This document shows, one piece after another, positions 1-47,285 of a stretch of DNA of 47,285 nt. Position numbers and translations under genes: made by a program. The stretch's first letter is position 1. Every line of letters starts with the position of its first letter. The DNA comes from Escherichia phage phiKP26: the sequence record KC579452, one strand, 5' to 3'. The notes beneath the pieces are model-generated. The model searched no databases. It was not told where the DNA came from and saw nothing but the letters and a program-made list of their open reading frames with translations.

Positions 1-65
1 TCGGTTACGCGTATATAAAATAGCACGATTTGCATAGACAACNAAGCCGAAAAATNNCGGGAGCC

Positions 66-446
66 CAAGTTGAAGTAAAATACGGTGTCGNAGTTAGCAG
101 GATTAGCCGCCATGGCTGGAATGGAGTGGTTGGCATTCGATCTCTATACGAGGCAATAGAAAAGGNCCAGCCATTCGTCGGGCGCGAAGGGATTATGCAT
201 GACCTGACAATTAAANNCATCCCANAAATACAAAAGAGGGGAATNGTTTGCCTCATTGGCGATAAGATTTATGTTCATCCGGCCCTGGTTGAGATGGATA
301 AGGACGACGTGCAAAACTGGTGCAGTCAGTGCCGATCCGACGTGCCACGCTCAAACTACGTGCCACCGCAAACAACAATCCATGGCTATAATGCCGATGA
401 GGTGGAGAAGGCCATACAGTTCTACCGGAAAGCGAAAGCTCTCCCG
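66..446. repeat. Direct repeat copy A (assembly overlap / terminal redundancy); near-identical to 46542-46922
   Basis: Base-by-base match to 46542-46922 at offset 46476; differences cluster at N-containing positions. ORF 30-473 is the repeat image of the C-terminal part of CDS 46389-46961. Confidence 0.85.
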
Positions 447-457
447 AATGGTGAATA

Positions 458-500
458 TAGCACAAATTGCTAAACAATAAATTGGGTAGTCAGCTATGAT
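458..500 (+). promoter_or_regulatory. palindrome/-10 promoter-like element (tagcacaaattgcta-N22-tatgat)
   Basis: Family member; upstream of CDS 531-761. Confidence 0.4.
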
Positions 501-530
501 TACCCTATCAACAACAAAGAGGAAATAACC

Positions 531-761
531 ATGAAAGCTGTAATTATTGAAGGTTTCGCAGGCGCTCGCACAGAGGTGTCAACCTCAGTACATTACGAAG
601 GCATCGTGAGTATTGATATCAACTTCGGTAACCATGGCGACGGATGTGCGCTTGCTCACTATACTGCCTACCAAGCGCGCAAACTGGCGGCGGCGCTTAT
701 TCAGGCGGCTGAGGGGATTGAGAATGGTAAGGGTTACACTGGTCGGCGTAGAAGCGAGTAA
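531..761 (+). CDS. hypothetical early protein
   Basis: 76-aa ORF with RBS (aaagagg) and upstream palindrome/TATGAT element. Confidence 0.45.
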   Translation: MKAVIIEGFAGARTEVSTSVHYEGIVSIDINFGNHGDGCALAHYTAYQARKLAAALIQAAEGIENGKGYTGRRRSE

Positions 762-811
762 ATTCAGTATCATAATTGAAGCAAATGACAACTAAACGAT
801 AGGAAGCTAAC

Positions 812-1045
812 ATGATTACCATTAACCTTTCAGAAGAGCATGCTGCCGAGATTAGGGCTATACTAATGCATTGCCTTAGCCGCAAGATGTTTAGCGCGTC
901 AGAATCGCTTACAGAGGTTGTAAATCAGATTCGAAATCAGGAGTTTGAAGATATACTGCCGTGGGAAGAGGACTTGGCCTGGCTTGAGTACGAGCAGATT
1001 TGCACGGCACTATCAGGCTGCCAACTGGCTAGCCAATACAAGTGA
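812..1045 (+). CDS. hypothetical early protein
   Basis: 77-aa ORF with RBS (taggaag) 7 nt upstream. Confidence 0.45.
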   Translation: MITINLSEEHAAEIRAILMHCLSRKMFSASESLTEVVNQIRNQEFEDILPWEEDLAWLEYEQICTALSGCQLASQYK

Positions 1046-1324
1046 CAATCTACGAACACAAATTCAGCAGCAGGGGTATCGATATGCTCCTGCATTACGT
1101 AGACGAGAGATACGCCATGTTAATGCAGAAGACGCATGGCGGCACAATAACGAGGATTGAGATATGAGCTTGAATTTTTTNAAAACTAGCATAATTGAAG
1201 TTGATGAGGCAGTTTACTTTCACGAAAATCACGGATTCGACACCGAATGCCTTGCTGATGAGGGTATGGTACTTATTGTTGAGCGAGATGAGTTTTCAGA
1301 AANCGTAAANTGGAGTGAAAANTA

Positions 1325-1576
1325 ATGAGCAAGTACAACCGACAGATTGTTGGGCTGAATGGTAAAGTAACAACCATTGATGTATATCGGGTTCTGGATG
1401 CATTCCAGGTAACTGACCCCGCAACTCAACACGCCATTAAGAAAATGCTTTGTAGTGGGTTGCGTGGGCACAAGGACTATTTAACAGACCTTGATGAAGC
1501 TATTGAGTCGCTTAATAAGGCTTATGAACTTCGAAAGCAGCGTGATGAGCTTGGATATGTTTATTTCAGTAAATAG
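1325..1576 (+). CDS. hypothetical early protein
   Basis: 83-aa ORF; stop TAA abuts the palindrome element at 1574. Confidence 0.45.
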   Translation: MSKYNRQIVGLNGKVTTIDVYRVLDAFQVTDPATQHAIKKMLCSGLRGHKDYLTDLDEAIESLNKAYELRKQRDELGYVYFSK

Positions 1577-1616
1577 CACAAATTGCTAAACATCCATCGC
1601 AAGGATGCGTTACCAT
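1574..1616 (+). promoter_or_regulatory. palindrome/-10 promoter-like element (weak -10 taccat)
   Basis: tagcacaaattgcta plus 22 nt; leader ...atcgaaattagacgaggaaag before a 42-aa ORF at 1650. Confidence 0.3.
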
Positions 1617-1773
1617 TACTTTATCGAAATTAGACGAGGAAAGATTAAATGTGTGGATATGATGAGTTGCCAAGTGAATGGTGTAAAAAANTGATGGATG
1701 AGGCTAAAGATGGGGATGAAGTAATGGCGTACTTTGAGTTGATGAACATGTGGCGCGAACGTGAGGAGAAGAA

Positions 1774-2067
1774 ATGAAAATTAACGTATTCACTGGCAAC
1801 TTATTGGCAGCCAACGATTCTGAGGGTGGAGACGGCAAGCGAGCAATTCATATGTGGAGTAAGAAACAAACAATGAGGCGCATATCTATTGATGAGGCAA
1901 TTAAAATTGGTAGCTTCGTTTGCTTGTGGGTATGTGATGGTGAGCTTCAAGCGGAACAGGTTAGGAATGGTTACGTATATACTGGATATGATGAATATGA
2001 CGATGAGAGAGAATTGTTTCAGCCTGCATTTTATCTCGACGCTGAATTTTACATCGCTGGAGAATAA
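1774..2067 (+). CDS. hypothetical early protein
   Basis: 97-aa ORF in a co-oriented array of small ORFs. Confidence 0.4.
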   Translation: MKINVFTGNLLAANDSEGGDGKRAIHMWSKKQTMRRISIDEAIKIGSFVCLWVCDGELQAEQVRNGYVYTGYDEYDDERELFQPAFYLDAEFYIAGE

Positions 2068-2207
2068 CCCATGATATGGATTCACACGTACTACACTGGC
2101 AAGTTCAATAGCGTAATGCACAAACGAGTGTATGACAGCTATGAAGCGGCAAAGGCACAGCAGGCAGTCCTGGGTGGCGATATTCAATCTTACAAGAAGG
2201 CTTAATC

Positions 2208-2447
2208 ATGTTCGGACTTACTCAACCACAATTTAATGCAGTTCGCGCCCAAGCTAAGAANCTTAACGAGGCGGTGGATAAGCTGACAAGCAAGCAGAAG
2301 CAGGATAATGACATCATGAAGGCGATTATCTGTGAGTTTCATAGCCCAGTCAGTACAATCATCGAGAAGATGAAGTTTGTTNGGGTTGCAGGCTATCTTG
2401 CTGGTCGCGTAGGTAAGCGTGAAGATGGGGAGCAGATTTATGACTAA
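2208..2447 (+). CDS. hypothetical early protein
   Basis: 79-aa ORF; ATGA-type overlap with the next ORF. Confidence 0.4.
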   Translation: MFGLTQPQFNAVRAQAKXLNEAVDKLTSKQKQDNDIMKAIICEFHSPVSTIIEKMKFVXVAGYLAGRVGKREDGEQIYD

Positions 2448-2634
2448 ATCACTAGGGAAAGTCAGATGTATTGTGTCTTACAATGATAAGAAGTTCAAAA
2501 CTGGTAAATCTTACAGCATTTTGTCATCACCCGCATATGGTTGGGTTAAATGTGAGTCAGAAGATGGGTGTATAGAGATGGTTAAAGATGGCATTGACAT
2601 TGAGTTTGGTNACTTTGAGGTATTTTATGACTGA
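2440..2634 (+). CDS. hypothetical early protein
   Basis: ORF beginning MTKSLGK; start chosen at the ATG overlapping the upstream stop. Confidence 0.4.
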   Translation: MTKSLGKVRCIVSYNDKKFKTGKSYSILSSPAYGWVKCESEDGCIEMVKDGIDIEFGXFEVFYD

Positions 2635-2920
2635 GCTATCAATCTGGTTCCTGGCTGGCATGTTGACGTGGATTTATTTCGTCGTCATGGCTTGACGAAA
2701 ATGTTAAAAGTGGTTAGTATTAACCACGTAGACGGCAATGACCGTAACGCGCATCGCGGAGATGCAAGCCGATAGCCGGGCTGGATAAAGATACGAGGCA
2801 AATAAAACCGCAGTTAGACATTGAGAACTTCGCGAAGCGAACCAATCAATGCAGTAAGTCGGGCTTGACATTCCGAGGATTGTGAAACCTCCCCGCATTC
2901 GGTAAGCGGGACTCATTCTA

Positions 2921-2996
2921 GTTCTGCTGGCGTAACAGGATAACGCAGAGACCTCCTAAGTCTCAGTTACTGGTTCGAGTCCAGTGCGGAACACCA
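2921..2996 (+). tRNA. tRNA-Arg (anticodon CCT, reads AGG)
   Basis: Hand-folded cloverleaf: 7-bp acceptor stem (gttctgc/gcggaac, one G-U), D stem gcgt/acgc with GG in loop, anticodon stem gagac/gtctc, loop ctCCTaa with U33 and A37, T stem actgg/ccagt, T loop ttcgagt, discriminator A, encoded CCA. Confidence 0.8.
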
Positions 2997-3012
2997 AACA
3001 TGGAGCATCCTA

Positions 3013-3198
3013 GTGAATAACTACGAAGTCCGTTTAACTTCCCGCCTAATGGGTCGGCAATGCAAATCTTGCCAGCAATCCTACGAAGGTAGGTTCATTG
3101 CTAAAAGCCCTGAAGAAGCAGTTGCAGCCGCAAAGGCAGCATTTAAGATTGACCTGACAGTCCACAAAGTCAGCGTTGATAAAGTATCCCTCGTTTGA
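3013..3198 (+). CDS. hypothetical protein
   Basis: 61-aa ORF followed by a rho-independent terminator. Confidence 0.4.
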   Translation: MNNYEVRLTSRLMGRQCKSCQQSYEGRFIAKSPEEAVAAAKAAFKIDLTVHKVSVDKVSLV

Positions 3199-3226
3199 GA
3201 TTGGTCATCTCGCAATGCAGTACTTT

Positions 3227-3250
3227 GCCCTCCTTGTGAGGGCTTTTTTN
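3227..3250 (+). terminator. rho-independent terminator
   Basis: gccctc-cttgt-gagggc stem-loop followed by a T6 run. Confidence 0.7.
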
Positions 3251-3297
3251 CGTCCATAGTCATGGTACAATGACTTTTAAAACAGGAGGAATATCAA

Positions 3298-3813
3298 ATG
3301 TCAGAAGAGAAAAAAATTCACCAGAAGATTGGTAACTTCAAGGAGCTTTACAATAAGAAGTATGGCGACATTGCCAATCTTAAGATTAACCACAGATACA
3401 CTCCCGAGCAGGTATTCGACATGGCTGTAAGGTATTTCAGCTGGGCTGAAGAGCAGGCAATTAAAGCTATCGAGACAGCAAGCTTTCAGGGTGTCGTAAC
3501 GGAAAACCTTGTTCACAAGCCGAGGGTATTTACGATAACTGGATTCCAGCTTTTCTGCGGCGTTGGTCATAATGCTATTAGCAAATGGCGCTCATCACCA
3601 GGATTCGATGAAGTTATGGAGTTCGTCGACTCAGTTATCTTTGAACAGAAGTACCAGTTGGGTGTTAACAACATCGTCAACCCTGGACTTATTAGCAAAG
3701 ACCTTGGCATCGATAAGCCGCAAGAGGTTAACATCAACAACGCTTCTAATGCTGTAGTAAACGACGAGGAAGCAATGAAGTCTGCTCTGGCTTCTGTAAT
3801 GGATAAACTATGA
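3298..3813 (+). CDS. putative terminase small subunit
   Basis: 171-aa ORF immediately upstream of and overlapping the large terminase; call is by position only. Confidence 0.5.
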   Translation: MSEEKKIHQKIGNFKELYNKKYGDIANLKINHRYTPEQVFDMAVRYFSWAEEQAIKAIETASFQGVVTENLVHKPRVFTITGFQLFCGVGHNAISKWRSSPGFDEVMEFVDSVIFEQKYQLGVNNIVNPGLISKDLGIDKPQEVNINNASNAVVNDEEAMKSALASVMDKL

Positions 3814-5378
3814 AGACATTGGTTTGGGAAGAAATGACGCCAGCCGAAAAGCTGGCAGTTAAAGTGCTGTCCACTCACAGCTTCGAGGCATTCCTTCGCG
3901 TGTGGTTTCAGCTAAGCCAGGGAGAGCGATACATCCCTAACTGGCATCACAAGTACCTTTGCCGAATAATTGACGAGGTTATTAGTGGCGAGCGTAGGGA
4001 TACCATCATTAACGTGGCTCCCGGGGCCGGGAAGACCGAGATTACTTCAATACACTTCCCTGTATACTCAATGCTTAAGCTAAAGAAGGTGCGAAATCTG
4101 AGCCTCTCATTCTCTGACAGTCTGGTGAAGCGCAACTCTAAGCGTGTTCGCGACCTTATAAAGTCAGCTGAGTTTCAGGAACTATGGCCCTGTAAGTTCG
4201 GCACGTGCAAGGATGACGAGATTCAGGTTCTTGACGAGAGTGGAAAGGTTAGGTTCGAAGCGATATCTAAGGCAATTGGCGGTCAGATTACCGGCGCTCG
4301 TGGCGGTTATATTACTGAAACCTATAGCGGTTGCTTGATGCTTGATGACCCAGACAAGCCAGACGATATGCTCAGCAAGGTAAGGCGAGAAGCTGTCCAC
4401 GTTTTACTTAAAAATNCCATTCGCTCACGTAGGGCGAGTAGCGTTAAAGGTAAAGCTACGCCGATTTTGTCCATCCAGCAAAGGCTTCATACGCAGGATT
4501 CGACGTGGTTCATGACTTCTGGTGGTATGGGTATCGACTTTGATGTATTGAAGATACCGGCGCTGGTCACTGAAGAATATGTGAATGAACTTCCTGACTG
4601 GATTCGTGAGCAGTTCGAGAAGGACGTGCTTTCATCCGAGTACGTCGAGCGAGATGGTGTTAAGTATTACAGCTACTTCCCGCAGAAGGAATCTGCGCAT
4701 GACTTGATGGCAATGTGGGACTCAGATCCGTACACGTTCCTAAGCCAGTACCAACAATCTCCAGTAGCCTTAGGTGGAAACCTGATTAACGTAGATTGGT
4801 TCGTGAGGCTTGACGAGAACAACAGGCCGCCAGTCAAGTATGACTACCGCTTCATTACAGCTGATACTGCCATGACTACGAAGAGTTACAGCGATTATTC
4901 TGTGTTCCAGCTTTGGGGTAGAAAGGATAACAAGATTTATCTTCTGGATATGGTTAGGGGTAAATGGGAGGCTCCAGAGCTTGAGCAAACTCTTCTGAAC
5001 TTTGAGAGTAAGCACCGAGCAGCTAGTAAAACAGATGGTATCTTACGTAAGGTTATTATCGAGAAGAAAGCATCTGGCATAGGGCTTATCCAGTCAGCAG
5101 GTCGAACGATGCGGACTCCTATTGAGCCTTTCGTTCCCGATACAGATAAGTTAACCAGGGTGATGAGCGCATTACCACAGATTAAGGCTGGTAACGTAGT
5201 TCTGCCAGACTCAGCGCCATGGCTTACATCTCTGCTAACTGAGTTCTCGGCGTTCACTGCGGACGATTCACACCCCCATGATGACATTGTAGATACAACA
5301 ACGATGGCAATAAACTGTGAATTGAACTTGAGTGACGACCCAAGAGCTAGGTTAATGAGGCTAGCTGGAGTTAAGTAA
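3810..5378 (+). CDS. terminase large subunit
   Basis: 522 aa; Walker A-like NVAPGAGKTE, Walker B-like LMLDDPD, C-terminal nuclease-like region; canonical position. Confidence 0.85.
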   Translation: MKTLVWEEMTPAEKLAVKVLSTHSFEAFLRVWFQLSQGERYIPNWHHKYLCRIIDEVISGERRDTIINVAPGAGKTEITSIHFPVYSMLKLKKVRNLSLSFSDSLVKRNSKRVRDLIKSAEFQELWPCKFGTCKDDEIQVLDESGKVRFEAISKAIGGQITGARGGYITETYSGCLMLDDPDKPDDMLSKVRREAVHVLLKNXIRSRRASSVKGKATPILSIQQRLHTQDSTWFMTSGGMGIDFDVLKIPALVTEEYVNELPDWIREQFEKDVLSSEYVERDGVKYYSYFPQKESAHDLMAMWDSDPYTFLSQYQQSPVALGGNLINVDWFVRLDENNRPPVKYDYRFITADTAMTTKSYSDYSVFQLWGRKDNKIYLLDMVRGKWEAPELEQTLLNFESKHRAASKTDGILRKVIIEKKASGIGLIQSAGRTMRTPIEPFVPDTDKLTRVMSALPQIKAGNVVLPDSAPWLTSLLTEFSAFTADDSHPHDDIVDTTTMAINCELNLSDDPRARLMRLAGVK

Positions 5379-5390
5379 TCATGATAAACT

Positions 5391-5413
5391 GCCCCTTACT
5401 CAGGGGCTTTTTN
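5391..5413 (+). terminator. rho-independent terminator
   Basis: gcccct-tactc-aggggc hairpin followed by a T-run. Confidence 0.65.
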
Positions 5414-5427
5414 ATTGGAGAAATTAC

Positions 5428-6702
5428 ATGGTAAAAGCAGACAGCTACGCAAACATCTTTCTCAACGGGAGTGATGGTAGCGAGATTTACGGAAAGCTTG
5501 GCGGCCTTGGCCTAACAGCTCCAGCGCAGCTTGAGCAGCTTTACGTCAACAGCGCACTGGTTCGCCGAATCATTGATATCGTGCCGGAGGTTGCACTTGG
5601 TGCTGGCTTTAACATCGAAGGCATCAGCGATGAAGGTGCTTTCTGGTCTCGATGGGATGATTTAGACCTTTCAGATAGCGTAATTGACGCCCTGGCGTGG
5701 GCAAGGTTATACGGTGGCGCAGCTGTAGTAGCAATAGTTAAGGATGGTAGGGCGCTAACTAGCCCAGCTCGTGAAGGTGCGGAGCTCGAAACCGTTCGCG
5801 TATACGACCGGCAGCAAGTAAAAGTGCAGACTCGCGAGGAGAATCCACGAAACGCTCGATTTGGTAAGCCATTAACTTACCGCATCACGCCAAATGGTTC
5901 AGCTACGTTCTATGATGTACACTACACACGTTGCCATATCATTGATGGCGAGCGAGTGCCTAACAATTTACGTCGTAATAACGATGGTTGGGGCGCAAGC
6001 GTGCTAACTAGTGACTTAATCGACGCGATTGACGACTATCAGAACTGCGAGAGACTGGCTACTCAGTTACTGCGTCGTAAGCAGCAGGCTGTATGGAAAG
6101 CTAAAGGCCTTGCTGACTTGTGCGATGATTCGGATGGATTTGGCGCGGCTCGTTTACGTCTGGCTCAGGTAGATAATAACAGTGGCGTTGGTCAGGCTAT
6201 CGGGATTGACGCGGAGAGTGAAGAGTACAACGTTCTCAACTCAGATATTGGCGGTATTGATACATTTCTGAGTCAGAAGTTCGATCGAATCGTTGCCCTG
6301 AGCGGCATCCATGAAATTATTCTCAAAGCCAAGAATACTGGCGGTGTATCAGCCAGCCAAAATACGGCTCTGGAAACTTTCTATGGTTACGTTGACCGCA
6401 AGCGCAAGGCTGAATTACTGCCCCTTCTTGAGTTCCTGATTTCATTCATTGTAAGTGAGCAGGAATGGTCAGTAGAATTTAACCCTCTATCGCAGATTAG
6501 CGACAAGGATAAATCTGAGATTCTTGAGAAGAACGTCAATTCAGTTGCCGCATTGATTGCAGCTGGAATCATTGACGCAGACGAAGCAAGAGATACGTTG
6601 CGCGCAATTTCAACTGAGGTTAAGATTGGCGAAGGCTCAATTCAAACGGAGGTTGTAATTAATGAATCAGAAGACCCGCTGGATGTATCCGCAAATAATT
6701 GA
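5428..6702 (+). CDS. portal protein
   Basis: 424-aa ORF directly after the large terminase; size and position typical. Confidence 0.7.
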   Translation: MVKADSYANIFLNGSDGSEIYGKLGGLGLTAPAQLEQLYVNSALVRRIIDIVPEVALGAGFNIEGISDEGAFWSRWDDLDLSDSVIDALAWARLYGGAAVVAIVKDGRALTSPAREGAELETVRVYDRQQVKVQTREENPRNARFGKPLTYRITPNGSATFYDVHYTRCHIIDGERVPNNLRRNNDGWGASVLTSDLIDAIDDYQNCERLATQLLRRKQQAVWKAKGLADLCDDSDGFGAARLRLAQVDNNSGVGQAIGIDAESEEYNVLNSDIGGIDTFLSQKFDRIVALSGIHEIILKAKNTGGVSASQNTALETFYGYVDRKRKAELLPLLEFLISFIVSEQEWSVEFNPLSQISDKDKSEILEKNVNSVAALIAAGIIDADEARDTLRAISTEVKIGEGSIQTEVVINESEDPLDVSANN

Positions 6703-7426
6703 GAGCCAGATTAATCGCAGCCTTTTGGTTGCGGTATCTGAACTTATTGAGCAAATGAAGTTATCTGCAAAGAGGCTAAAAATTGACACAGCGCAGGAGA
6801 TTGAAGAGGAAGATTCAGACCTTTCAGATGTAATCTCAGCGCTGCTATCTGGTTTTGTTTCCACTCTGCCTGCGCTGGCACTAGCAATATATCGTTATAA
6901 CTCGGCGCAATTCCTTAAGGTGGCCAACAACTCCGGAGGTAAGGATAATCCTGTAGTTCTTGCGCTAGGATTGTATGGTATTAACGCGGATGAACCATGG
7001 TGGCTCGACACCAGGAACTCATGGATTGTTGGCACGCAGTTAAGTGCATCAAAGCTGCTAAACAACATCAAGGATGATTTCATAAACAACGCCATTACTG
7101 CGCAGGCTGGTAACACTGTTGACCTTGATGATAGATACCGAATCTACAGAAAGAGAACAGCAAATATCGCTGCTGGAATTACAGGGTCTCTAAACTCAAA
7201 CCTTATGCGGAGAAGGCTTGAAGATGCCGGTGTATCTCAGTATGTTTGGCGTGGTAGACTTGACGACAAAGAGCGACCATCTCACGTTTTGCGTGAGGGG
7301 GTTAGCTTTAAATCAGATGGTTCGGACGCTGGAAAACTTGACGGCCTTGCGATATTCCCCGGTCAGCAATACGGGTGTCGTTGCTGGGCTGTTCCTAAAT
7401 GGGAGAATTTAATTAATGAAGAGTAA
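6662..7426 (+). CDS. head morphogenesis protein (Mu F / SPP1 gp7-like minor head protein)
   Basis: 254 aa after the portal; C-terminal region with the VWRGRLDDKERPSH motif typical of this family. Confidence 0.6.
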   Translation: MNQKTRWMYPQIIESQINRSLLVAVSELIEQMKLSAKRLKIDTAQEIEEEDSDLSDVISALLSGFVSTLPALALAIYRYNSAQFLKVANNSGGKDNPVVLALGLYGINADEPWWLDTRNSWIVGTQLSASKLLNNIKDDFINNAITAQAGNTVDLDDRYRIYRKRTANIAAGITGSLNSNLMRRRLEDAGVSQYVWRGRLDDKERPSHVLREGVSFKSDGSDAGKLDGLAIFPGQQYGCRCWAVPKWENLINEE

Positions 7427-8525
7427 AATGCGTTATGATAGCGCCAAGGTAAAAGCCCGTTTCGATGAGAACGGTTTTCTCGTGGACACCCCAGTGGTTG
7501 CTCGCGTAGGTGTACAAACCTACTATATGCCAGATGGTTCAGAGCGCCGAGAGTTCCGTCCGGCTTCAGAGGTTTTTAAAGCCGATTCGCTGCAAAGTTA
7601 CCAGGGTAAGCCGCTTACTCTTGGTCACGTGGTTGTAAACTCTGAAAATGCTAAAGAGGTGGTTGTTGGTTCTGTATCTGGGTCAGCAATGCGTCAGGAC
7701 TCGGCAGTGATTGTTCCTCTTACCGTTTACGACAAGGAAGCAATTGAGAAGGCCAAGTCTGGCGTTGCTGGTGAGCTCTCTGTTGGCTACAACACTGTTG
7801 ACATTGAGTCTCCTGGCTGGGGTAGTAATGAAACGGGTGAGTACAAGCTTGATGGAGAGTACGCAAGCCAGGATGAGATTCCTGCTGATTGGGTACGCTT
7901 TGATGCGCTACAGACGAATATCGTTGTTAATCATATCGCACTCGTATATAAAGGTCGCGCAGGTATTGCTAAACTCAATCTGGACGCGGAACAGGAAAAC
8001 CCGTATACTGATACCGTTCAATCAAATAAAGAGGATAAATTGATGATTAAGATTAAACTCGATGGCGAACAGGAGTTCGAAATCGCCCCGGAAGTTGCTA
8101 AGCATATCGAAGCTGTTAAGGCTGATGCGGAGCAGGCTAAAGCTAAAGCTGACACTCTGGAAGCTGAGCGCGACGCACTGAAAGCTAAAGTTGATGGCAT
8201 CCCCGCTGAAATAGAAGCTGCTTTAGCCAAAGCTAAGACTGATGCTGACGAAATGGCTGCCCTGGTCGCAGTTGCCGCAGAAGCTGGCGTTAAATGTGAT
8301 GGCCTGGATGCTAAAGCAATCAAAGTTGCTTACGTTAAAGAAGTGTCTGGTATTGAAGTTGCTGAGAAATCTGACGCATACATCGATGCAGCCTTTGATA
8401 TCGCTAAAGATAGTGATAAAATGGCCGAAGCCCGCAAAGCAGTTGCTGCTGCGGATAAATCTGACGCAGCCGACGCGCCTAAGAAATTAGACCCGCGCGC
8501 TCGCCTCGCTAAATTGAAAAAATAA
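7416..8525 (+). CDS. head scaffolding protein (N-terminal globular domain plus Ala/Lys/Glu-rich coiled coil)
   Basis: 369 aa; C-terminal half is strongly helical and A/K/E/D-rich; sits between morphogenesis and capsid genes. Confidence 0.6.
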   Translation: MKSKMRYDSAKVKARFDENGFLVDTPVVARVGVQTYYMPDGSERREFRPASEVFKADSLQSYQGKPLTLGHVVVNSENAKEVVVGSVSGSAMRQDSAVIVPLTVYDKEAIEKAKSGVAGELSVGYNTVDIESPGWGSNETGEYKLDGEYASQDEIPADWVRFDALQTNIVVNHIALVYKGRAGIAKLNLDAEQENPYTDTVQSNKEDKLMIKIKLDGEQEFEIAPEVAKHIEAVKADAEQAKAKADTLEAERDALKAKVDGIPAEIEAALAKAKTDADEMAALVAVAAEAGVKCDGLDAKAIKVAYVKEVSGIEVAEKSDAYIDAAFDIAKDSDKMAEARKAVAAADKSDAADAPKKLDPRARLAKLKK

Positions 8526-9097: not shown

Positions 9098-10543
9098 ATG
9101 GCTTACACAGAAATTGCTATGGCAGTAGGGAATTCACCTGAAATCTTAGCCAGGANCGTAAAAGTGATGATGTCATCAGGCTTTCAGCCATATGGTGATG
9201 TGCAGATGCTAAGCGGCACCCTCTTTGGCATGAAGATGGCGAAAGGAACAACAAACAACGTTGAAGACTTCATGGTTACATCCGACACCACAATTCAGGG
9301 GCTAGTTAACAGGGTTAACCGATATCTAGCGCAGGGCTGGAAAAGGTTTGGCAATGCTCACTTCGAGGATGGCGCTTATATTTCAGCTCTGGCTAAAGGT
9401 GATTTTGCAAGTGATGAAGNAGGGGGTTCAGGTGAAGCAGGTCCACAAGGTCCGGTTGGTCCGCAGGGTCCAGCAGGTCCCGCAGGCGAAGCTGGTCCGC
9501 AAGGCCCTCAAGGTCCAACTGGTGCAACTGGCCCAGCAGGTGCGGCAGGCGCCAAAGGTGACACTGGTCCGGCAGGCCCTGCAGGCCCGCAAGGTCCTCA
9601 AGGCGAGACTGGAGAAGCTGGTCCACAGGGTCCTATGGGCCCAACAGGTGCAACAGGTCCGGCTGGCCCAAAAGGTGATAAAGGTGATGCAGGTCCAGTT
9701 GGTCCGGCAGGCTTGACATTCCGTGGGGTGTACGACGCAGCGACAGCTTACGTTAAAGATGATGTTGTTACATTCAATAACTCCAGCTGGTTTGCTACCA
9801 CTGCTGTTACCGGAGAGAATCCAGATGTTAGCGATTCCTGGGAATTGCTGGCTGCACAAGGCGCCCCTGGCCCACAAGGAGCAACCGGTCCAGCAGGCCC
9901 GACTGGCCCAGCAGGCCCGGCTGGCATTCAAGGTCCTCAGGGAGAAAGAGGCCTTCAGGGTGAGCAGGGTCCGACAGGTCCGCAAGGCTTGCAAGGTGCA
10001 GCAGGTGCAGTCGGGCCTCAAGGCCCAGCAGGTCCTCAGGGTGAGCCAGGAATACAGGGTCCTGTTGGCCCTCAAGGTCCAATTGGCCCTAAAGGCGATA
10101 AGGGAGACCCGGGAATATCAAGAACCTTCATGAAAGTTAAANCATCGCCTGATGTTGGCACTAATCATATGTTAAGACTACCAGCTCCTCTTAACAACCT
10201 ATCTGTTGGTATAAGGCTTGATTCAACAGTGCTTTTTAGCATTAGAGCCTGGATTGATGAGGGAAGCACTGCCAGGAACATAAGAGGTAATATTGAGGGC
10301 TTCAATAATACAGATAACTACTTCAATACAACAGTAAGGACAGCAATATCTTCATCTTCCGTAACTGGAACAGCATTGGTTACTGGCATTGGTGAATTTC
10401 AAAGAATAAGGCCATATGTTTTTAGCTTTTATGAAACCACAACAGGAACGGCGTGGAGAGTAACAATAAATCTATTTACAGTCGGTTATGTTGTGAGCGA
10501 CAATCAAGACCTGTGTATAGAAGTTGTAAGGCTTGATGCATAA
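9098..10543 (+). CDS. collagen-like repeat protein (two G-X-Y blocks, globular N- and C-terminal domains)
   Basis: 481 aa; two long Gly-X-Y runs ([17 protein letters not shown]...) separated by a ~45-aa non-collagen linker; C-terminal beta-rich domain. Confidence 0.8.
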
Positions 10544-18866: not shown

Positions 18867-18867
18867 A

Positions 18868-18910
18868 TAGCACTAATTGCTAAACAGAAATACCAAGGAA
18901 GGTTTACAAT
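18868..18910 (+). promoter_or_regulatory. palindrome/-10 promoter-like element (tagcactaattgcta-N22-tacaat) inside the tail module
   Basis: Family member directly upstream of the moron-like ORF 18930-19154. Confidence 0.4.
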
Positions 18911-25724: not shown

Positions 25725-25960
25725 TCCTTTGAGCCGTGATCTGCAACTGAGCCGCCGTAGCCTCCACCAACCTTTGACTCAATGCCAGCATAACGAATAT
25801 CAACCTCTCCAGCTGCAACAATAACACCACCTTTCCACTTAGCTACGCAAACATCACCCGCCTGAGTCGCACACCATCCGTCAGGGCGCGGACCAGAAGA
25901 ACAACCTACCGTCATGATTGCTGCTGCTGCGATGATTGCTGATTTGATGAAGTTAGTCAT
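25715..25960 (-). CDS. small lipoprotein, Cor/Llp-like superinfection-exclusion candidate
   Basis: 81 aa from the ATG at 25960 with RBS (aaggaa): [22 protein letters not shown]..., i.e. signal peptide plus lipobox-like Cys; Gly-rich mature part. Confidence 0.55.
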
Positions 25961-26010
25961 TTTGTATTCCTTAGTCAGTATGTTTCGTTTCGATGGAGTA
26001 ACTATAGCAA

Positions 26011-26054
26011 AGGCTTCTGCTGTAGTCTTTAGCAAATCGTGCTATTTTATATAC
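26011..26054 (-). promoter_or_regulatory. palindrome/-10 promoter-like element driving the lipoprotein operon
   Basis: Minus-strand reading: tagcacgatttgcta-N23-tatagt-tactccatcgaaacgaaa, then RBS and ATG at 25960. Confidence 0.45.
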
Positions 26055-26520
26055 GCGTAACCGATGTAACTCGATGTATACAATCTCATCCGCTGAAAAT
26101 TGTATACGCTTTTTACGCGAAGATACGCATTAGTTACATTTATAAATCCTTATATAATAAGGGTTTAGAGTATTATTATTATTATATATATTACTATGTA
26201 TATCTTGTAACTACTCTCTATAGCTATGTTGTTGTGTTTTACTAAAATACTATGTTTGATTTCCTGTTAAGGAGAAAATGCATATATATATAGATAGGGT
26301 GCAAATTTGGTGGATACATTGGTTACAAGGGTTACATTCAGCATTCATGCGGCGTACAGAGCATCAAAGCGTATTTATGTGAGTTTTACAGCTATATACA
26401 AAATAGCACGAATAATCAAAAAAAATGATTCCCGATTAATCACAGGGGAGTAAACAACTNAAGCGGTAATACTTGTGATGNATAAATTGGAACACAATTT
26501 ACAGGAATGAAAACANATCC
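26040..26520. promoter_or_regulatory. AT-rich non-coding switch region A (phased ACGC boxes, (TAT)5 tract, divergent promoters); candidate origin
   Basis: ~480 bp without credible ORFs between divergent operons; ACGC boxes at 26105/26116/26125; tattattattattat at 26171-26185; GGTTACA x2 near 26320; palindrome element at its left edge. Confidence 0.5.
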
Positions 26521-27180
26521 ATGAGCAAAATCGAAAGTGGAGAGATNACGAATATGAGTAATATCGACGTATTAAGAAATATAAGGGAGATGCTAAATGA
26601 TGAAGAGGTATCCCCAGATTTGGGGACACCATGCGTAGTTGATGATAATACAAAATTGTATTCTCAAAATGGAGGATGTGGCCTCAAATTTGAGGGCACC
26701 TACACTAACGAGCAAAACGGTCAGTCTTACCCATGTTTTAACTTGCCATACCGTGAAACTATGATTTTGATGGTCGGTTATAACAGAAAGGTAGCCGCAA
26801 GAATTATTGACCGCTGGCTTCATCTTGAGCGGGAGAATAAATTACTAAAAGACCACATGAAGAAGATGGTTTCACTTGACGAGGTCAAAGTTTACAAGAT
26901 CGAGGCTGCGTCAGCAAAAGCCGCGCAGCACAGAGCTGAGGATAACTATTACGCGATTGAGAAGTTCATGTTTAAGAGCATGGATAAGTGTGGAAATCCT
27001 GCGGAACTTGATGAGCAATACTTCGATGTTAAGTTCGAGTCAAATCGTTACCATGACTCTCAAGAGGTGGTTTACAAATATCAGGCTCAGCTTGAGGTTG
27101 CCTGCGAAAAGTTAAAGGCTAAAGATGAGCTTATTGCTAATCTAGTTGATAAGAATAGCGAGATTCTTAAGTTGAAATAA
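26521..27180 (+). CDS. hypothetical protein with coiled-coil C-terminus (possible phage regulatory / antirepressor-like protein)
   Basis: 219 aa; first gene transcribed rightward from the switch region; functional call is a weak impression only. Confidence 0.35.
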   Translation: MSKIESGEXTNMSNIDVLRNIREMLNDEEVSPDLGTPCVVDDNTKLYSQNGGCGLKFEGTYTNEQNGQSYPCFNLPYRETMILMVGYNRKVAARIIDRWLHLERENKLLKDHMKKMVSLDEVKVYKIEAASAKAAQHRAEDNYYAIEKFMFKSMDKCGNPAELDEQYFDVKFESNRYHDSQEVVYKYQAQLEVACEKLKAKDELIANLVDKNSEILKLK

Positions 27181-27451: not shown

Positions 27452-28420
27452 ATGAGCTTCAAGGTTTACACTAGCGACGAGTTAACCAACGAAGCCTACC
27501 ACAAGGAGTCAGACCATGTGTCTGGCTCTGGTCTGGCTCACATCTTCTCAACTTGCCCCGCTGCTTATAAGTTTGCAGAGCATGATGATAGCAATAAGGC
27601 TTTAAAGTTCGGTACATTAGCCCACACGGTTATTCTTGAAAACTCTGTATTCGATGCGACTTACTATCGCCAGCCAGCGCAAGAAGAGTTTGATGATCTG
27701 ATTACTAGCAAGACTGCTTTGGCAACTCGGTTGAAGTCGATGGGTATTGCTGGAACATCTGGTAAGGATTATCCAGAATTAATGGAGATTCTGGCGCTGA
27801 GCGGTGAATCACTTAACGTATGGTGGGATATTCAGCGCTCTAACGAGGTTAAAGCGAACGGTCGCGAGATTGTATCAGCTAAAGACTTTGACACAGTACA
27901 TGCGATGCGAGAGGTGCTGTGTGGCATTCCTGCATACAATGCGATAGTGAACAGTAAAACCGCTCAGCGAGAGTTATCAATCTTCGGTGAGATTAACGAG
28001 TGCGGCGTTAAGGTTCGTCTTGACCATGTCGATGTCGTTGATGATGTAGTTTATATCCGTGACTACAAGACGACTAGCGACGCATCTCCATCTGGATTTG
28101 GGAGATTGGCCTTCAAGCATGGTTACTTGCTAAAAATGGCGCTTCAGCATGATTTGTTTGTTCGCGCCTTTAATGAGAAGCGTCGAGTTGTTGTTCAGCT
28201 TCTTTGCCAGGAAANGAAAAGCCCATTCCTTCCAATGTGCTACACGATAACAAAAGAGCACTTAAAGGTTGGTAGATTGCAATACATGAGCGCCCTATCC
28301 ACATACAAGCAATGCAAGAAACTTGATATTTGGCCTGGTTACGGATTTGGCGAAACAGAGATGGAACTGCAAGTTCCTGAGTATGAGATGAAGAAGTACG
28401 AAGATAGCACGAATAGCTAA
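27452..28420 (+). CDS. PD-(D/E)xK family exonuclease (recombination exonuclease)
   Basis: 322 aa; D...VVDDVVYIRDYKTT motif characteristic of PD-(D/E)xK nucleases; immediately upstream of Erf. Confidence 0.6.
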   Translation: MSFKVYTSDELTNEAYHKESDHVSGSGLAHIFSTCPAAYKFAEHDDSNKALKFGTLAHTVILENSVFDATYYRQPAQEEFDDLITSKTALATRLKSMGIAGTSGKDYPELMEILALSGESLNVWWDIQRSNEVKANGREIVSAKDFDTVHAMREVLCGIPAYNAIVNSKTAQRELSIFGEINECGVKVRLDHVDVVDDVVYIRDYKTTSDASPSGFGRLAFKHGYLLKMALQHDLFVRAFNEKRRVVVQLLCQEXKSPFLPMCYTITKEHLKVGRLQYMSALSTYKQCKKLDIWPGYGFGETEMELQVPEYEMKKYEDSTNS

Positions 28421-28447
28421 AACGGTATTAAATTGATGGGGTATAGT
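28405..28447 (+). promoter_or_regulatory. palindrome/-10 promoter-like element (imperfect palindrome) upstream of erf
   Basis: tagcacgaatagcta-N22-tatagt-tacctcatcgacaacaaagagag; overlaps the exonuclease stop codon. Confidence 0.4.
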
Positions 28448-29103: not shown

Positions 29104-29392
29104 AAATAAATAAAGCTGTTCCAAAATAAAAGGGGCCTAAAACCCTAAATAAAACAAAATATGATATGAATTGGGACATATTCTCTGATATNNNGATTGG
29201 TAAGGCGGCGTGGAANTATAGAGAAGAAATACGGCAAGAGTAAATNGGAAGATATAAAGGATAAAAAGGAGGAAAGATTAGAAATGAAGAGATGGAGAGC
29301 GTAAGCATAGGAATTATCGAGCTACCTNCTTTGCTAGCGAGGCGCAAATTAGCTGGTATGACGAAGCATTTCAGGAAGGAAAAGTTATCTCT

Positions 29393-35912: not shown

Positions 35913-36301
35913 TGGTTAAGGTTTTTCACGACAAAACAAGCACGGACAAGGCTAAAGAGGTTGTTCACCAAATAAATTCAATAGCTTGGGTTCGCCACAA
36001 CCATCCAGAGATATTTGCTTTTCACGTGAAGAATGAAGGTCTCAAGTCTATCGGCACAGCAATGAAGGACAAGCAGGAGGGAGTAATTAAGGGTGTATCA
36101 GATATTCTACTGATTGGACCAAATGGCTTTGCCGCAATAGAGCTTAAGCGAGCAATAAAATCAGATAGCAAGGTTTCAAAGGAGCAAAAGGAGTTCCTGG
36201 AAAAGGTATCAGAAACAGGAGGTTACGCAGCAATCTGTTATGGGTTTGAAATGTTTAAGTTGGCAATTACAGATTATCTATCAAATAGCACGAATTGCTA
36301 A
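35912..36301 (+). CDS. VRR-NUC domain nuclease
   Basis: 129 aa; ...SDILLIGPNGFAAIELKR... resembles the PD-(D/E)xK VRR-NUC core; stop codon lies inside the palindrome element. Confidence 0.55.
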   Translation: MVKVFHDKTSTDKAKEVVHQINSIAWVRHNHPEIFAFHVKNEGLKSIGTAMKDKQEGVIKGVSDILLIGPNGFAAIELKRAIKSDSKVSKEQKEFLEKVSETGGYAAICYGFEMFKLAITDYLSNSTNC

Positions 36302-36328
36302 AGAGATTTCGCAAGGATGCGATATAGT
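36286..36328 (+). promoter_or_regulatory. palindrome/-10 promoter-like element (best consensus copy)
   Basis: tagcacgaattgcta-N22-tatagt-tacttcatcgaaacgaagagag, then ATG at 36360. Confidence 0.45.
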
Positions 36329-38947: not shown

Positions 38948-39022
38948 CACAAATAGTCAAGAAACTACCAGAAAAAGCAGATGGTGGCAATTCAAACAAA
39001 TGAAAAAGCTAGATGAATNNGA

Positions 39023-39214
39023 ATGACTTGCGGAAATATTGAGATGAATTGGTTCAAGAAAGAAATCAAATGGAAAGAAATGTTAAGCATAAAGAGGAAG
39101 GTGGGGATGGGGATAACAGGAGTTATTNATTATAGTGAGTGTTTCAACGACGCGGTATTGGCAAGGANGAAAGCTGAATCTGAATACTCATTTCATGAAA
39201 ATCACGGAAANTAG
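39023..39214 (+). CDS. hypothetical protein
   Basis: 63-aa ORF; Ns within. Confidence 0.3.
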   Translation: MTCGNIEMNWFKKEIKWKEMLSIKRKVGMGITGVIXYSECFNDAVLARXKAESEYSFHENHGX

Positions 39215-39254
39215 CACGAATTGCTAAAACACAAATCAAAAGATGGGGTATATT
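39212..39254 (+). promoter_or_regulatory. palindrome/-10 promoter-like element
   Basis: tagcacgaattgcta-N22-tatatt-tactccatcaaa...; upstream of CDS 39288-39473. Confidence 0.4.
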
Positions 39255-41399: not shown

Positions 41400-42989
41400 T
41401 TACCCCAGCAGCCGTGGATTGATATATACCTTGTCACCAATCAGGCAGGTATAGTTTTTATCATCAAGCATCGGGAGTAAGTGGTCTTTAATTTTAGCCA
41501 TAACACCAGCCTGTGACTCGAAAGGTCGAACCTTACGCGCAGCTTCATAAAGTGAGCGCAAACCCACAACTCCTTTACTGTTCTTGCCTTGCTTGATAAG
41601 GATATCAATTAACTTGTTCATCTCAGCGTTATCGCCAGCATGACCAGCTGCGTTAGCAGAAGATAAGTAAGTCTTGCTAAGTTCTTCAAACATCAATAAA
41701 GCCTCCTGCATCGTTTCCAGTCCAATCTCCCTGGACTTCTGCGGACTACCGCCATTTGGATTAAACCAGTTACGTATGGTGTGAAGAACGGCAGCAAGGC
41801 GAATAACCTGCTTATCCATTTTACCTAGTGCGCCACGGAGCATTGTGTGTGAATACTTGCCGCCATCCGCAAGGTGTGGCTCCATTTCCTGTCGAGCACG
41901 GTTAAGGTGCTTCATTGCTGAGTTACTAATAGTCAACTTCACATCTTGCTCACTCATAATTTCATGAACAAGACGGAAGTAATCAGCCTTCAACGCTCCG
42001 TCAATCGGCTCATATGTTGACTCGCCATTATCATCGACGAAAACACGCTCACCAAGGAATGACTTTTCACGCACAAGCAAGAAACGTTCGGATACACCAA
42101 TACCGCGAGCACCAGCATTCATGATTGCGACTATTGTTTCATCCTGCGCAATTACAGAAATACACCCCATAGCAATAAAGCTCATGTTGTTCTCTGCGTT
42201 CGCACGCGCGATAGATACGTTACCAGCATCCCAGGCCTTAAGTACCAGTTCGCTGTTTGTTTNCTTTGTTCCATCACCATAGGTCATGCCAAGCAGTGAG
42301 TTGACGCTCGTCGCCTCATCCGAGATGACAGCGAAGCTACCCTGACGATGGTTAATGCGTGCCAGACCTTCAGGAGTAGTATCAGATACAGGGAATACGA
42401 TGTCGCAAAGTTTCTCGAGCTTATCTTCCAGCTCCTCCTTCTCCTCAAACAAACCAGCCATCTCAGAAGGCGACTTCTCCTGCTTCATTTCTTTAGCCAG
42501 AGCCGACAGCTTGGCCATAATCTTTTTACGGTCACGCTTACGCAGATCGTTTAGTCGCTCAGTCTCTGCAATCATTGGAGCCAGAGACAGCGAGTTAATG
42601 GCGGATTTACCAGTTGATGGAGGCTGGCTGGTCACTACATACAGTGATGTTGGTTGTTGAGTTCCGTGATACTCAACCGTAAAGCGACCTAACATAGCTG
42701 CCGAGATGCAACCAAGGAAGTGCATATAAGCAGATGATTCAGGAAACTGAACAGAACGAGCAATGTTGCTTGATAGTTTGCCAACTACATCATAGTCGTT
42801 ACCAAGCGAGATAACAGGATACTTGTCGCCAGTAGAATCAATCTCAACCGGAGCTTTCCAGAATGATGCGCTCTGGCGATAACCGTTCGCATTAATAGCA
42901 ACACGTAAAGGAGGTAATCCATCCTGAGCGGCAACAGCCATTACTTGTTCAACAGTCAATTTGTCATCATTAAAATCAAACATTATCAT
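41400..42989 (-). CDS. P-loop NTPase of unknown function (Walker A-like PPSTGKS, Walker B-like AVISDEA)
   Basis: 529 aa; N- and C-terminal segments are paralogous to the short protein at 46389-46961. Confidence 0.5.
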   Translation of the reverse strand: MIMFDFNDDKLTVEQVMAVAAQDGLPPLRVAINANGYRQSASFWKAPVEIDSTGDKYPVISLGNDYDVVGKLSSNIARSVQFPESSAYMHFLGCISAAMLGRFTVEYHGTQQPTSLYVVTSQPPSTGKSAINSLSLAPMIAETERLNDLRKRDRKKIMAKLSALAKEMKQEKSPSEMAGLFEEKEELEDKLEKLCDIVFPVSDTTPEGLARINHRQGSFAVISDEATSVNSLLGMTYGDGTKXTNSELVLKAWDAGNVSIARANAENNMSFIAMGCISVIAQDETIVAIMNAGARGIGVSERFLLVREKSFLGERVFVDDNGESTYEPIDGALKADYFRLVHEIMSEQDVKLTISNSAMKHLNRARQEMEPHLADGGKYSHTMLRGALGKMDKQVIRLAAVLHTIRNWFNPNGGSPQKSREIGLETMQEALLMFEELSKTYLSSANAAGHAGDNAEMNKLIDILIKQGKNSKGVVGLRSLYEAARKVRPFESQAGVMAKIKDHLLPMLDDKNYTCLIGDKVYINPRLLG

Positions 42990-44394: not shown

Positions 44395-44437
44395 AATATA
44401 CAATAAAAGCCCCGAAGGGCTTTAGCAATTCGTGCTA
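44395..44437 (-). promoter_or_regulatory. palindrome/-10 promoter-like element with embedded terminator hairpin (minus strand)
   Basis: Minus reading: tagcacgaattgcta, spacer aaagccc-ttcg-gggcttt, then tatatt-catctcatcgaaacgaaa; upstream of CDS 44058-44360. Confidence 0.45.
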
Positions 44438-44587
44438 TTNCTTTGCTGCTTTTGCAATTGCCTTCTGGACGATGTTGAAGCTCTCAATCAAATCTTCTTT
44501 GAAGTAGTCACCAACAGGCCAACCCTTACCGCTGTACTTGGCTATGGTTTCTAGATCGTAATAGTTCAAGTCAGATGGCTTTAGCAT

Positions 44588-45228: not shown

Positions 45229-45272
45229 ACTATAGCCTTGCCATCCCCATTTGTCTTTAGCAAAAAGTGCTA
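45229..45272 (-). promoter_or_regulatory. palindrome/-10 promoter-like element (minus strand), first promoter of the leftward operon from region B
   Basis: Minus reading: tagcactttttgcta-N23-tatagt-aaactcatcaacaacgaggag, then ATG at 45201. Confidence 0.45.
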
Positions 45273-45289
45273 TTCGTCAGATTTATGGA

Positions 45290-45870
45290 TTGTTGCAGGC
45301 ATTGCGATGATTAGCATGACTATTACACATAAAGCAATATTTCATCGATTGCAATGATTTTCTGGACTGTTGCGAATTTATCAATGATTGATGGATTGAT
45401 GGAATGAAGTGAGGGTTGTATCAACTAGTTGGTTGGTTTTAGCTTTCACAAGGAGCTTTCCTTTATGTACGCGTTATGGCTTGTTCAACCGTGTAGAGAA
45501 ATTGCCATATTTACGCCATCCACGCCAGTTTACGCGCTGGTTACAAANTAAATCCCTTATATAACAACCATTTAGATTTATTATTATTATTATTATTATA
45601 TATGTTATTCCGTAACCATGATTATCTGAGATATTGGTGATATTTTTTGATATTGCGCGGCGCATAAAGATTTAGATAAAGAGATAGGGATGCAAGCGGG
45701 GTGGCGAAAATGGCTTAACATACCATAACGGCAATAACAGCCTTGATACGACTAGCGTCAGCATGTAACAATTTAGCATAACGTGCGATTACCGAGTTGA
45801 ACGTGTAAATAACGCTTGCGACATTCACCAATCATGGTAAGATGCTCTCACACCAAACGAGAGGAGTAGT
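45290..45870. promoter_or_regulatory. AT-rich non-coding switch region B, paralogous to 26040-26520 (phased ACGC boxes, (TTA)6 tract); candidate origin
   Basis: ACGC boxes at 45513/45522/45532; ttattattattattattat at 45578-45596 with flanks similar to 26141-26215; tandem gattgatgg x2 near 45390; no credible ORF. Confidence 0.5.
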
Positions 45871-45873
45871 AAA

Positions 45874-46389
45874 ATGAGTAATACAATTCGTGAAGCAAAC
45901 CCGACACTTGGCGACCTGGTGCGGCACCTTGTTAAGATGGCTCTTAATTCAGAGGATGGAAGCGTAACAGTTCCCGTTAAGTTGCTTTACAAGAATCTTT
46001 ACGGAGAAATTGATAACGACTATGTAGCAGCTGACTTTAGACCTGGCGGCAAATATTCACTTCCAAAGCTTAAGGCTTCCTATGTTTCAAATACAGCCAG
46101 CAGAATGCAGGAAGTTAAAGACGCAGATAAGCGCGCAAGGTTCTCTTGTGGAGAGATGGAGTATAATGGTGATGAGCATTATTGCGTAAAAATCACAATG
46201 GTCAACGGTGCTGTTAAGAATGGAACCCGAGCTAAGACAAACAGTCAATTAGAGGAGAAAGCGGTAAGCGAGTTTAAAGCTAGGCTACTTAAGCTTTCCC
46301 CNAGCGTAGCAGGAATGAGTGGAGATGAACTGAAGGGTGCGGTAGCTATGATTAACGCATATCAGGAAATGATTAAGGAGACTAAATAA
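45874..46389 (+). CDS. hypothetical protein
   Basis: 171-aa ORF with a strong RBS (gagaggag); first rightward gene after region B. Confidence 0.5.
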   Translation: MSNTIREANPTLGDLVRHLVKMALNSEDGSVTVPVKLLYKNLYGEIDNDYVAADFRPGGKYSLPKLKASYVSNTASRMQEVKDADKRARFSCGEMEYNGDEHYCVKITMVNGAVKNGTRAKTNSQLEEKAVSEFKARLLKLSXSVAGMSGDELKGAVAMINAYQEMIKETK

Positions 46390-46961
46390 TGTTTGATTTC
46401 AACGAGGATAAGTTAACTGATGACCAGGTGATGGAAGTCGCCAGGCAAGATAACCTGCCGCCACTTCGTGTGGCAATCAGTACTAATGGATACCGCCAAT
46501 CATTCAATTTCTGGCCCAGCGCCGAAGAGATGCTGTGCGTCAAGTTGAGCTACAAATACGGTGTCGTAGTTAGCAGGATTAGCCGCCATGGCTGGAATGG
46601 AGTGGTTGGCATTCGATCTCTATACGAGGCAATNCGAAATGTCCAGCCATTCGTCGGGCGCGAAGGGATTATGCATGACCTGACAATTAACATCATCCCA
46701 GAACTACAAGAGNCGGGAATTGTTNGCCTCATTGGCGATAAGATTTATGTTCATCCGGCCCTGGTTGAGATGGATAAGGACGACGTGCAAAACTGGTGCA
46801 GTCAGTGCCGATCCGACGTGCCACGCTCAAACTACGTGCCACCGCAAACAACAATCCATGGCTATAATGCCGATGAGGTGGAGAAGGCCATACAGTTCTA
46901 CCGGAAAGCGAAAGCTCTCCGAAAGGGGAAATTTAAAAAAAATGAACCATCTATCAATTAA
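46389..46961 (+). CDS. short paralogue of the 529-aa P-loop protein, lacking the ATPase core; 3' end runs into low-quality sequence
   Basis: N-terminus MFDFNEDKLTDDQVMEVARQDNLPPLRVAISTNGYRQS matches the N-terminus of 41400-42989; a later block (VVGIRSLYEA...LIGDKIYVHPAL) matches its C-terminus. In the cleaner repeat copy the ORF ends at 473. Confidence 0.5.
   Translation: MFDFNEDKLTDDQVMEVARQDNLPPLRVAISTNGYRQSFNFWPSAEEMLCVKLSYKYGVVVSRISRHGWNGVVGIRSLYEAXRNVQPFVGREGIMHDLTINIIPELQEXGIVXLIGDKIYVHPALVEMDKDDVQNWCSQCRSDVPRSNYVPPQTTIHGYNADEVEKAIQFYRKAKALRKGKFKKNEPSIN
46542..46922. repeat. Direct repeat copy B (matches 66-446)
   Basis: Same as copy A; after 46922 the sequence degrades instead of continuing as 447 onward. 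Confidence 0.85.
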
Positions 46962-47285
46962 AAAAAATAAGTNANNAACCCCCACCACCAAAAAAACCAN
47001 NAACACANNNANAAATAACAACAAATAACAACCAAAAACCCANNNAAAAACANCAACACAACANCACNAANAANNCNCCACANAANAAAGGACAAATAAC
47101 ANNAGGATGCGAAGANACGNAGNNNNGCNNNNAGTANNCTNCGCAANNNNNGACAGGCNNNGGTGGACCCTCGTCACCGTAACACTTACAGGTACGCACG
47201 GACGGTAACGGTCGGACGAGGCAGGGTACGTACGGTCGGTAGGGACGGCGGGTACCTAGGTAGGGGTACTTTCGGAACGGTAACG
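46923..47285. other. Low-quality / artefactual sequence tail (N-rich, A/C homopolymer-rich)
   Basis: Dense Ns, poly-A and poly-C runs, no coherent reading frame; the ORFs predicted here are full of X. Confidence 0.8.

Follow-up and report, generated by a model that had tools for sequence, protein, structure and literature searches.

The ends of the Escherichia phage phiKP26 genome record are very probably untrimmed assembly leftovers

Introduction

Does the genome record of Escherichia phage phiKP26 (KC579452) begin and end where the DNA of the phage does? The genome is listed with 47,285 bp and 44.3% GC (Niu et al. 2014, PMC4070988). The window analyzed here is the whole deposited stretch of 47,285 nt (GC 44.26%). 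It carries a direct repeat near both ends, a short inverted piece at its head and a tail that resembles nothing else. The original prediction, made from the sequence alone, took these ends for artefacts and the first ~45 nt for an inverted piece that does not belong there. This main reading holds, based on the continuity of related genomes, a gene split into two damaged ORFs and a flow-order signature in the tail. The odd ends are very probably untrimmed assembly leftovers of a circularly permuted T1-like genome and have no biological structure. Positions are those of the window and refer to the plus strand unless stated otherwise.

Results and Discussion

The record ends overlap

Self-BLAST of the whole window, the self-alignment by which the original prediction was to be checked, recovered both the overlap and the inverted head. 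A direct repeat links the head and the tail, with 66–455 corresponding to 46541–46930 (94.4% identity over 391 columns, E = 4e-174). The overlap had been placed at 66–446 and 46542–46922; the repeat itself is confirmed, but its register was wrong. Position 66 pairs with 46541, the head copy has a deletion of one nucleotide at 77/46553 and the offset is 46,476 thereafter. The core of the overlap (250–444) is identical to 46726–46920 without any difference. It is the place to circularize the sequence at the offset of 46,476.

The closest records are those of T1-like Rogunavirus phages (Drexlerviridae), namely C119, phiJLA23, AHP24, AHS24 and Jk06. C119, itself a Rogunavirus, is 99+% identical over the whole genome unit. 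All five of these records read straight through the junction, and after removal of one copy of the overlap the resulting circle is collinear with the related genomes. The predicted wrap-around of a unit of about 46476 bp is thereby confirmed. The genome unit has 46,476 bp, and 809 of the 47,285 nt are an artefact consisting of overlap, misjoined piece and noise. Accordingly, the published and RefSeq length of phiKP26 (47,285 bp) is too long by 809 nt.

Differences between the overlap copies are read-end errors

A four-way alignment of the head copy, the tail copy, C119 and phiJLA23 served as arbiter of errors in the copies. In this alignment the two copies differ at 24 columns, 10 of which involve an N, the other 14 being substitutions or indels. 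C119 and phiJLA23 both support one of the two copies at 23 of the 24 columns. At 16 columns, all between 74 and 245, the error is in the head copy, and the error-laden part of this copy (66–249, corresponding to 46541–46725) includes 6 Ns. The tail copy (46541–46930) is wrong at 7 columns. It is correct up to 46920 except for 3 Ns and fails after the undercall of a homopolymer (CCC to CC) at 46921; its remaining errors lie just past this undercall, at positions that correspond to 445–453. The claim that the copies differ only at N-rich spots is thus roughly right, since those columns without an N adjoin Ns or lie at 74–77 and 445–453.

The errors are polarized and become more frequent towards each contig end, in both copies. 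The differences therefore reflect untrimmed ends of single reads and not diverged repeats.

Of the 149 Ns of the window, the first 250 nt hold 9 and the last 365 nt hold 44, while the 46.7-kb interior has 96. The interior Ns (~2 per kb) indicate that the whole deposited consensus is of low quality, and X is found in many gene translations.

The tail is very probably sequencing noise

The stretch 46923–47285 had been described as a decaying copy of the sequence from 447 onward. This applies only to ~46921–46930. From 46931 onward the similarity to 456–900 is not above that of shuffled sequences, with 725/2000, 1471/2000 and 1608/2000 shuffles reaching the observed score. That the tail is unreadable, in contrast, was rightly recognized. 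It passes through an A/C-rich and an N-rich phase (both within the unreadable read tail 46931–47165, as judged from composition and the absence of matches) and ends with 120 N-free bases (47166–47285).

These last 120 nt require only 1.425 flow steps per homopolymer run if the nucleotides are offered in the order TACG. Genomic windows of 120 nt (n = 4604) need 2.086 ± 0.091 flow steps per run with a minimum of 1.682. The low value is specific to TACG, as the other five cyclic orders give ~2.0–2.6 in the same 120 nt. TACG is the nucleotide flow order of 454 sequencing. Such a pattern arises when nearly all flows are called positive late in a read. The marks of 454 read-end noise are all present, i.e. 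calls in TACG order, Ns and a first tail error at a homopolymer (CCC to CC). The A/C-only phase at 46981–47100 is not specifically accounted for by flow-order noise.

Untrimmed vector or adaptor sequence is common at the ends of old records, and the end sequences of phiKP26 might accordingly be foreign DNA, derived from a cloning vector, a sequencing adaptor or the host. The probability of this is negligible. Searches with 46925–47285 against phages, plasmids and 5,426 E. coli genomes remained without a match (E ≤ 1–10). A comparison with 454 adaptors, M13/T7/SP6 primers and the pUC polylinker, which included the head stretch 43–65, gave nothing meaningful either, and the head piece derives from the phage itself (see below). 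Together with the junk at the head, ~420 nt of the phiKP26 record have no real DNA behind them.

One conserved gene is split by the record ends

Open reading frames at 30–473 and 46389–46961 exist mechanically, as do minus-strand frames within 46827–47199. The advice not to treat them as separate genes was sound. The minus-strand frames lie in noise, and the other two are damaged views of one conserved gene, which stands in the record as two damaged ORFs. The real gene starts in the tail (46389–46920) and continues at 445–473 with the stop codon TAA at 471–473. Its product has 186 aa. When joined inside the identical core, the reconstructed protein shares 183 of the 187 positions aligned with C119_59 (186 residues and the stop), and three of the four differences are X residues derived from Ns. 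In C119 the gene is a single CDS (C119 39457–40017), which covers 46389–46920 and then 445–473 of the window. An intact 186-aa orthologue is present in eight relatives (phiJLA23, C119, Jk06, AHP24, AHS24, AHP42, UDF157lw and BECP10), all in one cluster at 90%.

The 186-aa protein belongs to PHROG 7327 (E = 6e-98), a PHROG of unknown function, and a Pfam search gave no match. An exact look-up of the damaged end-ORF translations in the protein collection also gave no match, possibly owing to their X residues. The ORF at 531–761 is exactly FDI67_gp02 [Escherichia phage phiKP26]. As this gene bears the number gp02, the artefactual head before it apparently carries one annotated gene.

The overlap is very probably not a terminal repeat of the virion DNA

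T1-like phages have terminally redundant, circularly permuted DNA, and permutation is described for AHP24 and its sisters (PMC4070988). For the relative SU57, permutation was found by restriction mapping. UDF157lw uses headful (pac) packaging according to PhageTerm (PMC10838988) and is the only close relative ordered by a read-based terminus. Its record starts at ~45,417 of the window and that of Rogue1 at 45,339. Both starts fall within an untranslated region of 670 bp, which precedes the overlap by 1.1 kb and is 19 kb away from 26064.

phiKP26 resembles the headful phages T1, P22 and SPP1 in its placement among the T1-like Rogunavirus phages and in its genes for the small and large terminase subunits. 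TerS and TerL of C119 (42842–44922) lie inside the alignment block 66–7756 and map to ~3.3–5.4 kb of the window in an alignment of 99.6% identity. The 390-bp overlap does not correspond to the terminal redundancy of a headful phage, which in T1 amounts to a few kb and varies in position from molecule to molecule.

Like the records of T7-, T5- and N4-like phages with fixed repeats, the phiKP26 record is deposited as linear and has two direct copies near both ends. The ~390-bp repeat could thus be a true direct terminal repeat of a fixed-end genome, with the window as the true linear molecule. This is extremely unlikely. Junk of 65 nt and 355 nt separates the copies from the extreme ends, and they are just 94% identical, with differences that are read-end errors when judged by C119 and phiJLA23. 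Both borders of the repeat lie inside the 186-aa gene that the eight relatives carry undamaged. Furthermore, the group is headful-packaged and circularly permuted, i.e. of the wrong packaging type, and phiJLA23 has the same kind of overlap elsewhere in its genome. An automatic detector of direct terminal repeats could nevertheless class the phiKP26 record as that of a DTR phage.

The sister record phiJLA23 has the same end architecture

Phage phiJLA23 is from the laboratory of phiKP26; its reads were obtained by 454 on a GS Junior and assembled in Geneious (PMC3587941). Its record (KC333879) begins with N-rich junk (1–32), followed by a 411-nt overlap in which 33–443 corresponds to 42304–42715 (89% identity). 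A tail of 302 nt is first G/T-rich, then N-rich and finally N-free, and its TACG score is 1.667 compared to a genomic minimum of 1.698. The real unit has ~42,271 bp, the record 43,017. Reads of the GS Junior are ~400 nt long, which fits the overlap lengths of both records (390 nt in phiKP26).

The two records of the same genus therefore agree in the junk head, the direct overlap of ~400 nt, the decaying copy and the N-rich, TACG-ending tail. This common architecture is a signature of the pipeline. The records differ in the position of the overlap, which in phiJLA23 is found in the region of the Jk06 origin (26 kb) and in phiKP26 at 46.5 kb of the window. Moreover, only phiKP26 bears the inverted 42-nt head piece. 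The orientation of phiJLA23 is that of Jk06, and the middle of its end overlap lies no more than ~20 nt away from the origin of Jk06. This suggests a Jk06-guided assembly. Both features are expected if reads were mapped onto the linearized Jk06 sequence and the overhangs were kept. The flow-order signature and this sister record make it likely that phiKP26 was sequenced and assembled in the same way as phiJLA23 (454).

The inverted head piece

Positions 1–42 are the reverse complement of 26064–26022 with errors. The first 33 nt match 26032–26064 exactly, and 34–42 are a garbled continuation towards 26022. An exact match of 33 nt within 47 kb cannot be chance. An inverted copy had been proposed for 1–34 and 26041–26072; the match was correctly seen, but its far coordinates are off by 8–9 nt and the exact run has 33 rather than 34 nt. 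The source (26022–26064, minus strand) is intergenic and lies upstream of a minus-strand lipoprotein gene. It holds one copy of a promoter-like motif (26028–26045), which is described below.

Thirty-three error-free bases at the very start are unlike simple read-end decay. Hence a separate event, a chimera, is assumed here. The head piece holds the phiKP26 allele TATATAAAATAGC, whereas Jk06 reads TATATCAAATAGC. It therefore originates from phiKP26 reads and was not pasted out of the Jk06 reference. No reference bias towards Jk06 was seen in the source region of the head piece, where the window is 96% identical to Jk06 as compared to 99–100% to C119 and phiJLA23.

Base 1 of the window corresponds to 26064, and the origin of the circular Jk06 record (26058/26059) is 6 nt away. 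The Jk06 record opens exactly with the MluI site ACGCGT. The start sequence of Jk06, "acgcgtatatcaaat-agcac", was also made the start of Rogue1 on re-ordering (PMC3496638) and was a landmark for this purpose in 2012. Most economically, the head piece arose as a side effect when the sequence was assembled or re-ordered along Jk06, or it stems from a chimeric read. That its closeness to the Jk06 origin is tied to a Jk06-guided join is conjecture. Still, this closeness points to an in-silico or chimeric join rather than to a physical end.

The stretch 43–65 between the inverted piece and the overlap is of low quality (3 Ns) and unassignable. Its local alignments to 46501–46541 and to the reverse complement of 25981–26031 are no better than those of shuffled sequences. 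Accordingly, neither an assignment to 46518–46540 nor one as continuation of the inverted piece is significant. Two explanations of the join were considered and rejected. The MluI site does not qualify as a unique-site origin or a cloning junction, as the genome unit has six ACGCGT sites and the head piece continues 6 nt beyond this one. A misjoin via the promoter-like motif was also discarded; copies of the motif are present in the head piece and at 457–474, but the join at 46.5 kb has none.

A duplicated module close to the source of the head piece

A module of ~170 nt at 26044–26215 has a paralogue at 45460–45620. In a global alignment of 26030–26215 with 45430–45625, 125 of 212 columns are identical. 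The module consists of TACGCGT, three TACGC repeats 9–10 nt apart, GTTACA, AAATCC(C)TTATATAA, TTTAG and an (ATT)n run, in this order, and includes AAATCCTTATATAA. Its copies sit in the two large divergent intergenic regions. One copy abuts the origin of the Jk06 record, the other is located just inside the record starts of Rogue1 and UDF157lw and is also found in these relatives (Rogue1 175–280, UDF157lw 95–200). In the simpler view, the copies are two similarly regulated early control regions; a regulatory, origin-like or pac-related role is a candidate for the module. It was rejected as a plain sigma-70 promoter, because a consensus scan was not above the expectation from shuffles and hexamers found by hand are separated by a 14-nt spacer.

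The original prediction left the choice between a chimeric join and a physical end near 26040. The chimeric join is favored. A real DNA end or a rearranged molecule at ~26064 would be conceivable as a secondary packaging or cleavage site, located beside the duplicated module and caught as the start of a 454 read. Position 26064, the Jk06 origin and the phiJLA23 contig ends cluster within ~250 bp, and the paralogue of the module lies beside the record starts of Rogue1 and of UDF157lw, the latter ordered by PhageTerm. This explanation is very unlikely, however. The Jk06 start is a community landmark on an MluI site, so that the clustering is most simply bookkeeping, and the center and orientation of the phiJLA23 overlap are as predicted for Jk06-guided mapping. 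Of 218 related records, the 60 that match best are uninterrupted through 25860–26260, and in 49 of them the coverage of the query is at least 80%. The geometry differs as well: at 26064 the distance to the first TACGC repeat is 41 nt and the DNA extends leftwards, whereas the UDF157lw start is ~98 nt away with the DNA extending rightwards. Finally, if a read began at a true end, the assembly would place it at 26 kb instead of fusing it to 46.5 kb. That the virion DNA of phiKP26 has a genuine end or recombination point at ~26064, made at the duplicated module, is highly improbable. If true, Rogunavirus genomes would possess a second site of packaging or cleavage, or an origin-like one.

Origin of the record ends

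The preferred reading, untrimmed leftovers of the assembly, can be put as a series of probable steps. Headful packaging from a pac site would produce terminally redundant, circularly permuted virion DNA. Because of this permutation and redundancy, shotgun reads would assemble into a circle. The contig was probably exported as a linear consensus that was neither circularized nor trimmed at its ends, which would leave an overlap of about one 454 read length (66–455 and 46541–46930). Each end would be carried by the low-quality ends of single untrimmed reads. This would let the errors of the head copy rise leftwards and the tail copy collapse past the homopolymer undercall, first into N-rich and then into flow-order noise. 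At the left end, the 42-nt piece of 26022–26064 is attached in inverted orientation; a chimeric read may have brought it there, or a join made in silico during Jk06-guided assembly or re-ordering. The export would also have split the real 186-aa gene into its two damaged ORFs.

The record ends hold nothing biologically new. The value of the analysis is the curation of the phiKP26 record and, likewise, of the phiJLA23 record. Both would mislead studies that rely on them for the length of the genome, the number of genes, terminal repeats or the type of packaging.

Other features of the window and of related records

The 18-nt promoter-like motif ATAGCACGAATTGCTAAA has nine copies in the window at up to 3 mismatches, while 0.04 are expected by chance. 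Six copies are on the plus strand (457–474, 1573–1590, 18867–18884, 28404–28421, 36285–36302 and 39211–39228) and three on the minus strand (26028–26045, 44421–44438 and 45256–45273). The core of the motif is palindromic (TAGCA-N5-TGCTA) and has a -35-like TTGCTA inside. In the aligned copies, a TATAGT-like hexamer follows ~17 nt further on, and then come a conserved leader TTAC-TCCATCGAAAC, a ribosome-binding site and ATG. Judged from these sequence elements, the copies appear to be phage promoters of one family that include an operator.

The C119 record (KT825490; 1–13 and 47300–47319) is cut open within the gene for the prohead protease, and its annotation lists this gene as two CDS, C119_75 and C119_1. 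It starts with a poly-A run and lacks ~108 bp that are found in the window (7757–7864). Conversely, the window lacks ~452 bp of C119 at 29231–29286 (C119 21558–22009, in the region of the endonuclease gene C119_27) and ~238 bp at ~38993–39046 (C119 31825–32062, in the HNH endonuclease gene C119_41). Short alignable stretches flank both gaps, and 29–30 kb and 39–40 kb are the most N-rich kilobases of the interior (10 and 9 Ns, respectively). The gaps reflect either presence and absence of homing endonucleases or local misassembly. A stretch of 61 nt (26507–26567) aligns to two adjacent places of C119, one ending and one starting at C119 18778. This suggests a difference of a ~60-nt tandem copy at the start of a regulatory or anti-repressor gene. 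Four Ns are located close by, at 26460–26547.

A diverged tandem duplication with a period of 126 nt is present at 9430–9712, where 9430–9586 and 9556–9712 share 68% identity. It lies inside a structural gene that is mislabelled "putative DNA polymerase I" in the relatives. GPVGP repeats are described for gp21 of Rogue1 (PMC3496638).
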